In this document: piece after piece, positions 12,182-13,917 of the stretch
Position numbering within the stretch: the first letter of the stretch is position 1
Layout of the letters: each line of letters opens with the position of its first letter
The notes under the pieces: model-generated
What the model was told of the DNA's origin: nothing
The model's input: the letters and a program-made list of their open reading frames with translations, nothing else
Databases searched by the model: none
Origin: Octopus vulgaris
Taxonomy: Eukaryota
Length of the DNA stretch: 64,000 nucleotides
Direction of reading: 5' to 3'
NCBI GenBank assembly: GCA_951406725.2
Contig: OX597815.1
Location: forward strand, 13,144,001-13,208,000
Program-made: the position numbers and the translations under genes

Positions 12182-12224
12182 TCAACATATTTTCGGTGCT
12201 TTGAAACCGCGACATGTTCACTGA
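12182..12224 (-). ncRNA. Hammerhead-like motif with G3-C8 core (GTGAACA), degenerate
   Basis: TCA-GTGAACA-t-GTCGC...GCACC-GAA-AATATG-T-TGA; homologous to 13871-13917. Confidence 0.55.
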
Positions 12225-12744
12225 AATAACGCCATGCTGCATCTGAGAGCCTTACAGTTAGTTCATGATATATAGGTGTTTATATATGTATGTATGTATG
12301 TATGTATGTATGTATGTATGTATGTATATATGTATGTGTGTGTGTATGTATGTATGTATGTATGTACGTATATATGTACGTATGTATATATGCATGTATG
12401 TGTGTATGTGAGCATCTACGTATGCATAAGTGTACATGCGTTTGCATACATATGCGCACATATGTATGTATGTGTATATGCATGTACGAATGGGTATGTG
12501 TATATATAAAAGTATATATTATACATATACTTATATATGTGTGTGTATGTATGCATGTATGCATATACATATGTATATGTCTACGTAAGTTTCCAAAGGA
12601 AATTTATTTGAGTTTCACCGTTGTCTGTGACTGTAGAGACATATATGTGTAGATGGATAAAGGTATATATATGTATACTGTAAAATCATACGTATATATG
12701 TGTGTGTATATACGTGTTTATATGATTGTGTGTGGTTGTACATA

Positions 12745-12976
12745 TTTTTTTACTTGTTTCAGTCATTTGACTGCGGCCATGATGGAGCACCGCCTTCAGT
12801 CAAGCAAATCGACCCCGGGACTTATTCTTTGTAAGCTCAGTACTCATTATATCGGTCTCGTTTGCCGAACCGCCAAGTTACGGGGACGTAAACACACCAG
12901 CATCGGTTGTCAAGCAATGCTAGGGAGACCATGTGGTTGGTTAGCAAGCTACTTTCACACAGCCACTCCTGCGCCT
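12745..12976 (-). mobile_element. SINE family A copy with internal deletion
   Basis: The tRNA head (GGCGCAGGAGTGGCTGTGTG) joins directly to the 3' half near 12927. Confidence 0.88.
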
Positions 12977-13024
12977 ATGTATATGGTAGGTTTATATATA
13001 TATATATATATACATACATATATA

Positions 13025-13470
13025 TTTAAAACTGAGGATAAAATCTTTATAAGAAAATTATCAGTAGCTAGCGTGAAAAACCTCGTAAGAGAAAAATCCG
13101 TAATTTTTTTCACTTTGAAAATATTTATTTATATTATATAGCGGGTACTACTATTCATGGATACCGCACGCTAGGAGGGGCCCTTGCGGCCATAACTACT
13201 AAAATAAACAAACTGTACCGAACGCAAAACTTCAAAGCAAGTCATTTAAAAAAAGAATTTAGTTACTCAAGAGTTTGTTGCACTGATGAGCATAGAATGC
13301 ATATTCTGCATTAATTGCGAAATCACAAGTGATATATAACTAAATTCCTTTTTAAATGACTTTCTTTGAAGTTTTGCATTCGGTACAGTTTGTTTATTTT
13401 AGTAGTTATGGCGGCAAGGGCCCCTCCTAGCGTGAGGTATCTATGAATAGTAGTACCCTCTATATAATAT
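13025..13470. mobile_element. Fold-back element with ~135 bp arms enclosing a hammerhead
   Basis: Arms at 13131-13265 and 13337-13470 are reverse complementary; TA-rich tracts flank the element. Confidence 0.85.
13277..13340 (+). ncRNA. Type I hammerhead ribozyme motif with intact canonical core
   Basis: GTTGCA-CTGATGA-GCA...TGC-GAA-ATCAC-aa-GTGAT-A-TATAAC. Predicted cleavage after A13334 (AUA); stem I has one mismatch and one G.U pair. Confidence 0.75.
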
Positions 13471-13870
13471 ATATATATATATATATATATATACATATAT
13501 TTATATATATATATATATATATATATATATATATATATATATATATATATATAATAATAATAATAATATATATATATATATATATATATATATATATATA
13601 TGTATATACAAACTTCGACAGAATATGCCATATATACAACTTGAAGAGACACACATATCAGTATATACATATACACACATATGCAGACACGCCTACACAT
13701 TTATATACGTAAATACTCACATACATACATACATACATACATACATACATACATACATACATACATACATACATACATACATACATACATACGTACTACG
13801 TACATGCATTTATACGTACATTAACATATATATCATGAACTGTTACTTTCTCATTTGAAGCACAAAATTT

Positions 13871-13917
13871 TGTCAATGAACATGTCGCTGTTTCAAAGCG
13901 AGTAAAATATTTTGACA
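13871..13917 (+). ncRNA. Second copy of the G3-C8 hammerhead-like family, degenerate
   Basis: TGTCA-ATGAACA-tg-TCGCT...AGCGA-g-TAA-AATATT-T-TGACA: 5-bp stem I, 5-bp stem II, palindromic stem III; G3 and G12 are mutated. Confidence 0.55.

Follow-up and report, generated by a model that had tools for sequence, protein, structure and literature searches.

Two decayed copies of a Penelope-like element with a predicted G3-C8 minimal hammerhead motif in Octopus vulgaris

The window, a stretch of 64,000 nt from the Octopus vulgaris genome (contig OX597815.1, positions 13,144,001 to 13,208,000), contained two damaged hammerhead-like stretches in inverted orientation. These stretches are probably dead pLTR copies of a Penelope-like element (PLE) whose whole family carries a minimal hammerhead with a G3-C8 pair, and the intact motifs of this family are predicted to cut slowly, likely only as a dimer and with help from protein. 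As judged by its letters and its location, the motif is a minimal type I hammerhead in the pLTR of an EN+ PLE. In the active hammerhead, the textbook tertiary contact is that between positions 3 and 8. The family-wide natural inversion of this pair beside sister families with C3-G8 is phylogenetic proof of the pair; it also suggests that selection acts on catalysis in Penelope elements. The value of the finding lies in the intact young copies of the family and in the C3-G8 sisters, not in the window copies.

Two decayed copies and their insertion

The two copies, designated A and B (Table 1), were homologous and inverted relative to each other, sharing 74% identity over 118 nt (E 6e-18), as a sequence-only reading of the window had placed them. 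In copy A, G3 is at 12221 and the predicted cut falls between 12185 and 12184, and in copy B the predicted cut falls between 13912 and 13913. Compared with an intact copy (L035), A had other letters at 1.5, 2.4, 9a, 11.2, 11.3 and 16.1 and at a single position of the loop, and B at 3, 9a, 11.1 and 12 and at two positions of the loop; the lesions of core and stems were non-overlapping, as had been claimed. In both window copies, hammerhead core letters present in the family majorities were lost. The earlier description of A, with the core kept and stems II and III damaged, was correct but missed two further broken pairs, in helix I. For B, the intact stems I and III and the mutated G3 and G12 were confirmed, whereas stem II, said to be intact, had lost C11.1, by which G10.1-C11.1 is broken.

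Table 1 Features of the PLE insertion in the window
Feature	Position (nt)	Strand	Remarks
Inverted 5'-truncated PLE arm: microsatellite-rich 3' region and pLTR	12095..12460	-	Matches of 12071-12486 to older genomic copies
Decayed hammerhead copy A	12180..12226	-	G3...C8 core and GAAA intact; helix I, helix II and U16.1 damaged
Equivalent of putative transcription start, minus arm	12244	-	Deduced from 5' ends of other copies
First part of direct arm, from the PLE's 3' untranslated region	12463..12745	+	75-79% to L087 and L082; interrupted at 12746
Later insertion: other common interspersed repeat, foreign to the PLE	12746..12975		Gap in collinear match; sequence reading
Direct arm, short continuation past the first later insertion	12976..12995	+	82% over 34 nt to L087, collinear
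Later insertion: 360-bp self-complementary (85%) MITE-like element beside TA runs, foreign to the PLE	13121..13480		Sequence comparison
Remainder of direct arm, comprising 3' region and the pLTR that holds copy B	13586..13944	+	Stops at 13944, short of the usual 3' ends
Equivalent of putative transcription start, direct arm (the A in AGATG; 22-23 nt ahead of position 3)	13853	+	Deduced from 5' ends of other copies
Decayed hammerhead copy B	13871..13917	+	Helices I and III intact; G3>A (13876), C11.1>G, G12>T

The ancestor that had been reconstructed from these two copies agreed with the family majority in all letters but one, base 9a, which had been left as N: of 138 distinct fetched copies, 133 have the family letter G at this place and the remaining five, both window copies among them, have T. 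The majority sequence of the best 30 genomic relatives kept GTGAACA and the helix II stem, so that a consensus lacking either was not obtained, and the predicted ancestor (helix I, G3-C8, the extra base, GTCGC/GCGAC, GAA, AATATT and U17) was found unchanged in hundreds to thousands of copies. Its designation as a complete hammerhead fails for the monomer and holds for the dimer only, helix III being a 6-nt palindrome. The window copies themselves are inert, and their lesions are best read, from these comparisons, as decay after insertion.

Older genomic copies matched the inverted arm and, collinearly, the three segments of the direct arm, with other repeats between the matching parts. Because of these collinear matches and the T shared at 9a, A and B probably represent opposite arms of a single old inverted insertion, pushed apart by later insertions. 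The inverted arm is without tail and ends in a (TA)n run, its boundary near 12460 being approximate; the right flank of the insertion is cut off, so that no target duplication is readable.

Several other features were observed in the window. Inverted 70-nt arms (89% identity; 11620-11688 and 11964-12033) surround about 275 nt of unique-looking sequence in a MITE-like arrangement, and a SINE-like repeat of about 200 bp occurs in tandem and dispersed copies, 83-86% alike, at 14310-15080, 26199-26437 and 32890-33173. A reverse-transcriptase (RT) fragment of another retroelement, at 28806-29315 on the minus strand (RVT_1 E 6e-4, below the cutoff), had no match by tblastn with either of the two PLE families under study. 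The last 150 residues of an open frame at 36026-36760 on the plus strand resemble what we take to be the C-terminus of a CR1/L2-type LINE protein, a likeness for which there was no Pfam support. The window DNA is rich in microsatellites, which dominated the repeat search, and among the 150 Rfam matches listed of 265 in the window no hammerhead was present, these being microsatellite or other chance matches. Downstream sequence shared by four loci proved to be a different low-complexity repeat.

The carrier, its motif and two sister families

A walk upstream from positions 13600-13720 of the window through genomic copies led to a frame with a GIY-YIG domain. The unit is 4261 bp long and has one motif, located about 1 kb after the RT and GIY-YIG frame; in tandem copies (L132, L135, L136 and L142) it reappears at a spacing of 4261 bp and closely ahead of the following frame, which begins inside the pLTR. 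Young copies with open RT and GIY-YIG frames are present in the genome. One open frame of 1025 aa, with the first 26 or so residues derived from an inversion junction, possesses DKS, YVDD and, at its C-terminus, a GIY-YIG domain (25.4 bits, Pfam cutoff 22.6); RVT_1 gave no match on this frame itself and was carried by distant homologues. The linker CQSNCAVC is located at residue 868, and the CCHH consists of two Cys between VYQI and YIG and two His after. A linker of the form CX2-5CxxC together with CCHH characterizes the Neptune clade, and both are shared with Nematis; by motif, the carrier is of Neptune/Nematis type. The best named protein relative was 61% identical and labelled Octopus vulgaris.

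Copies of the element occupy TA-rich targets, often with an inverted truncated partner, and have pLTRs from partial tandems and an optional tail. Their 5' ends are variable, and two 3' ends about 60 nt apart lie downstream of the motif. Three other assignments were rejected: the Hydra clade (no CCHH, a CxCX5C linker, under 3 kb), given the CCHH and the 4261-bp unit; Naiad, given the C-terminal EN; and a non-LTR retrozyme (short non-coding tandem hammerhead repeats), given that the copies represent truncated ends of an element that is coding. Close direct pairs of the motif numbered 1 among 100 listed copies.

The family was also seen in contigs from eight public runs carrying the labels of four organisms, where no variant at position 3 or 8 reached 5%. 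In one run (X19, organism D), a contig of about 1500 depth on L126:2878-3001 represented a divergent relative with changes at helix I 2.1 and 15.2. The spacing between RT motifs A and B is 128 aa in L126:3971-6961 (minus strand) and about 130 aa in sister family B, a gap of the size of the insertion in fingers, with the endonuclease C-terminal; that insertion has been described for elements with an N-terminal EN (PMC8557442). P0105, an octopus protein whose annotation reads dynein regulatory complex subunit 6-like, shared 66% identity with 30% of the RT query; a PLE fragment was probably absorbed into this gene model.

In the genome searched (2.8 Gb, 227 contigs), the exact 46-letter intact motif occurred 456 times and its reversed control 0 times. 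The core 19-mer was found as G3-C8 in 6459 of 7054 counted occurrences and with another letter at 3 or 8 in 595, namely 386 that keep G3 but not C8 and 209 without G3; none of the 100 listed of these 209 was C3-G8. The 237 fetched copies spanning the motif, a set enriched by the queries, included 201 with G3-C8, none with C3-G8 and 11 unscored.

The motif forms the three-helix junction of a hammerhead in type I order, with a helix I of 5-7 bp, a helix II of 5 bp and, as helix III, a 6-bp intermolecular palindrome. U4, G5, A6, A9, G12, A13, A14, A15.1-U16.1 and H17 were all present in the four subfamily majorities described below. The motif also has the features of PLE minimal hammerheads, namely the extra base between 9 and 10.1, G10.1-C11.1 and an AAUAUU palindrome in the helix III region. 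The family departs from the literal CUGANGA (C3, G8), and the Watson-Crick pair at 3-8 is G-C here and C-G in the sister families B and C. With any Watson-Crick pair allowed at 3-8, a relaxed descriptor matched 1 of 20,000 dinucleotide shuffles of the 300-nt pLTR region with 4-bp stems and 0 of 20,000 with 5-bp stems; it gave no match in the 4171-nt interior of the full element, and neither decayed window copy passed it. Families B and C were missed by the descriptor and found by a relaxed reading of the sequence. A search of the intact copy against Rfam at E up to 10, run without the C3-G8 sister motifs as control, returned no hammerhead. Descriptors demanding CUGANGA miss thousands of such motifs.

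Family B, detected by a search with part of the RT, shared 55% amino acid identity over 815 aa and has intact frames of 1311 aa; a second protein identity in the same comparison was 37%. It is very abundant, with 4.6-kb tandems (L243, L258 and L256; G000 C19, C17 and C11), and carries at the homologous place, just before the related ORF start, a C3-G8 motif with the same inserted G. Position 9, where A is normally invariant, was non-A in all 21 copies seen (C in 20, T in 1). Family C, which is closer to B and older (244 copies of an 18-mer; L249:5145-5190, L259-L283), has the canonical CUGAAGA core (C3-G8) with the same inserted G, also just before the related ORF start; it shares the 5' arm of helix I with the G3-C8 family but has an additional base and a mismatched first helix I pair. 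One genome offers three related cores for comparison, G3-C8/A9, C3-G8/C9 and C3-G8/A9, two of them with intact frames.

Changes on both sides of 3-8, 10.4-11.4, 15.2-16.2 and helix I filled 21 cells among 13 aligned copies, compared with at most 7 in slid controls, a covariation representing three lineages and not 13 events. Relative to related families, double changes were present in helices II and III in two families and in helix I in one, while U4, G5, A6, G12, A13 and A14 were identical in all three families. U17 was the majority letter in all four subfamilies, and families B and C often have C17. Because B and C carry a homologous motif with C3-G8 and double changes in the helices, the G3-C8 swap is, on this alignment, a natural covariation. 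Published PLE motifs are C3-G8 or U3-A8 in the sources covered, and for this reason G3-C8 appears to be the derived state, originating from C3-G8. We infer selection on the 3-8 pair.

The 237 copies were sorted into four subfamilies, with departures from the majority of 0.8%, 1.0%, 5.8% and 7.7%. When the four majorities were compared column by column, differences were seen at 0 of 38 in core and stems, 5 of 9 in loop II, 13 of 86 in the non-coding flank and 8 of 89 in coding sequence. For core and stems against the non-coding flank alone, Fisher p was 0.006, in a test that is partly circular since copies had been sorted on loop II and two marks in the flank; p was about 0.03 (hand estimate) when those marks were left out.

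Transcript ends, fold and readings of function

The 5' ends were mapped in the first 100 of 2749 copies of a 39-mer downstream of the motif, some of which represent two arms of one insertion or inversion junctions. Fifty-one ended between 16 and 26 nt ahead of position 3, with 21 of these at -22; 10 continued upstream past the start site and 38 were scattered, and no pile-up was seen at the predicted cut, where 1 of the 100 ended. AGATG was preceded by G in 15 of the 22 copies ending there, the template having C or T, and in 9 of 16 (p 0.007 versus 1 in 4) after leaving out 6 explicable by the inverted arm. This untemplated G suggests a cap and run-off from a capped 5' end; those templates would therefore have been uncut. 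We infer that transcription starts at the A located 22 nt before position 3, by which the motif is placed 17-64 nt after the start and the predicted cut at 58 nt from the cap, with the first AUG a further 56 nt downstream. RNA-like contigs had no common end at the cut, but contigs cannot show ends, and this has no bearing on expression. In read-through copies, uncut RNA and re-ligated circles look alike. The sequence CTAAC...TTTCTCAG before the motif was considered as a branch point and 3' splice site explaining the 5' ends and was dropped because truncated copies have unrelated or inverted upstream sequence and share no exon; it may serve as a splice site in read-through RNA.

All 30 of 30 pairs of the swapped dimer were standard. 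The active dimer was predicted at -27.2 kcal/mol versus -29.4 for two monomers and -31.3 for the best dimer fold, about 2 kcal/mol above the two monomers, and the predicted monomer pairs G3 with U17.

These observations are consistent with the following scheme, in which the intact motif likely still cuts, slowly. Transcription would begin 22 nt before position 3 with a capped end, helix III would form only between two motifs via the AAUAUU palindrome, and each core would cut its partner; in a lone motif, G3-U17 pairing would extend helix I and keep the ribozyme off. Most reverse-transcribed templates would then be uncut capped RNA, and a slow, protein-assisted cut would remove the cap 56 nt before the AUG. 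G3-C8, derived from C3-G8, would be kept likely as a pair rather than for base identity, positioning the 2'-OH of residue 8. Against this scheme stand the single 5' end at the predicted cut, the lack of a common end among RNA-like contigs, the lower stability of the active dimer, the spread of family B with a non-A at position 9, the mismatched first pair of helix I in family C, a covariation of three lineages and the partial activity of the laboratory double mutant.

A more far-reaching version can be offered only tentatively, namely an active natural G3-C8 hammerhead that became fixed in a still-mobile lineage of four related species beside sister lineages with C3-G8. The two-mutation valley could have been crossed with the mutant core, in a dimer, still being cut by its partner. 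Removal of the cap would sort the element RNA into a capped template and a decapped form that is translated, circular or degraded. Self-cleavage in a 5' UTR can reportedly start cap-independent translation in viruses (PMC13725137), and its extension to the G3-C8 element is a guess by analogy.

In the main alternative to the slow-cutting scheme, the motif would descend from a hammerhead and no longer cut, its fold being kept as a promoter, 5' UTR element or protein-binding site and G3-C8 being tolerated drift. The near absence of 5' ends at the cut fits such a relic, as does the position of the motif so close behind the putative start, a place at which an internal promoter might impose constraint; family B prospers with C9, so that a perfect core is not needed to spread, and hammerhead mutants had no effect on insertion in vitro (PMC11167929). 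This account is nevertheless the less likely one, since two transversions exactly restored a tertiary pair that is needed only for catalysis, the same unpaired core letters persist in three families whose helices covary, and no core or stem column changed across the four subfamilies.

It is very improbable that the motif is an efficient ribozyme in vivo, in which both pLTRs are cut to give a unit-length RNA that is circularised and acts as main template or message. Such a model has been proposed for PLEs (PMC4209133), tandem units do exist in the genome, and the read-through copies could stem from re-ligated circles; against it, about half of the mapped copies end just upstream of the motif, the G before AGATG points to capped uncut templates, and the active fold is not favoured energetically. 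Finally, a chance likeness in an AT-rich repeat, with which the lack of an Rfam hammerhead match would agree, can be dismissed given the rarity of descriptor matches among shuffles, a location where PLE hammerheads occur, and the covariation with homologous C3-G8 motifs of the sister families. A slowly cutting, dimer-dependent hammerhead thus accounts best for the observations.

Comparison with known systems

In the literature searched, G3-C8 was encountered only in laboratory mutants and not as a natural pair; the large set of PLE variants reportedly assembled by Lunse et al. 2016 lies outside this coverage, and a prior record is possible. No natural G3-C8 was present in the parts covered of PMC7229834, PMC6765202, PMC11014351, bioRxiv 10.64898/2026.07.22.740005 and the supplement of PMC8557442, and the rows examined in supplementary file 2 of PMC4209133 all begin with CUGA.

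The carrier shares with Neptune/Nematis-type EN+ PLEs, which have a C-terminal EN and a Zn-finger linker (Craig et al. 2021, PMC8557442), the order of RT and GIY-YIG, a DK motif, a CX3CxxC linker and CCHH, as well as TA-rich targets, pLTRs, inverted truncated copies and a one-sided tail; it differs in having DKS instead of DKG, a tail of about 60 nt and 128 aa between RT motifs A and B. Like Poseidon (PMC11167929), it has two RT start sites giving a tail and probably uncut RNA as the template, whereas the Poseidon ORF starts inside the ribozyme and here the first AUG lies after the predicted cut. The same source indicates that the PLE hammerhead needs the protein of the element and that uncut RNA is the main template, with which the putatively capped 5' ends and the predicted folds of the octopus family agree.

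With the minimal hammerheads of PLEs (PMC4209133) the motif has in common the type I order, a short helix I, the extra base between 9 and 10.1, G10.1-C11.1, a palindromic 15.2-16.2 region needing a dimer, the location in pLTRs and mostly solo or inverted copies; the core is C3-G8 there, with a U3-A8 variant in Schistosoma, and G3-C8 here. Natural U3-A8 hammerheads (Perreault et al. 2011, PMC3088659) are likewise a case of natural 3-8 covariation, but they keep a pyrimidine at 3 and a purine at 8 through two transitions, whereas the present pair is inverted through two transversions and has a pyrimidine at residue 8. The base pair itself is that of the C3G/G8C double mutants made in the laboratory (PMC11167929, PMC8495972, PMC3884650), of which that in the Anolis Poseidon hammerhead partly rescues cleavage (PMC11167929) and another is less active with C17, a mirror trap being formed by C3-G17 (PMC3884650). 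The pair that was engineered in those studies is natural and fixed in the octopus family.
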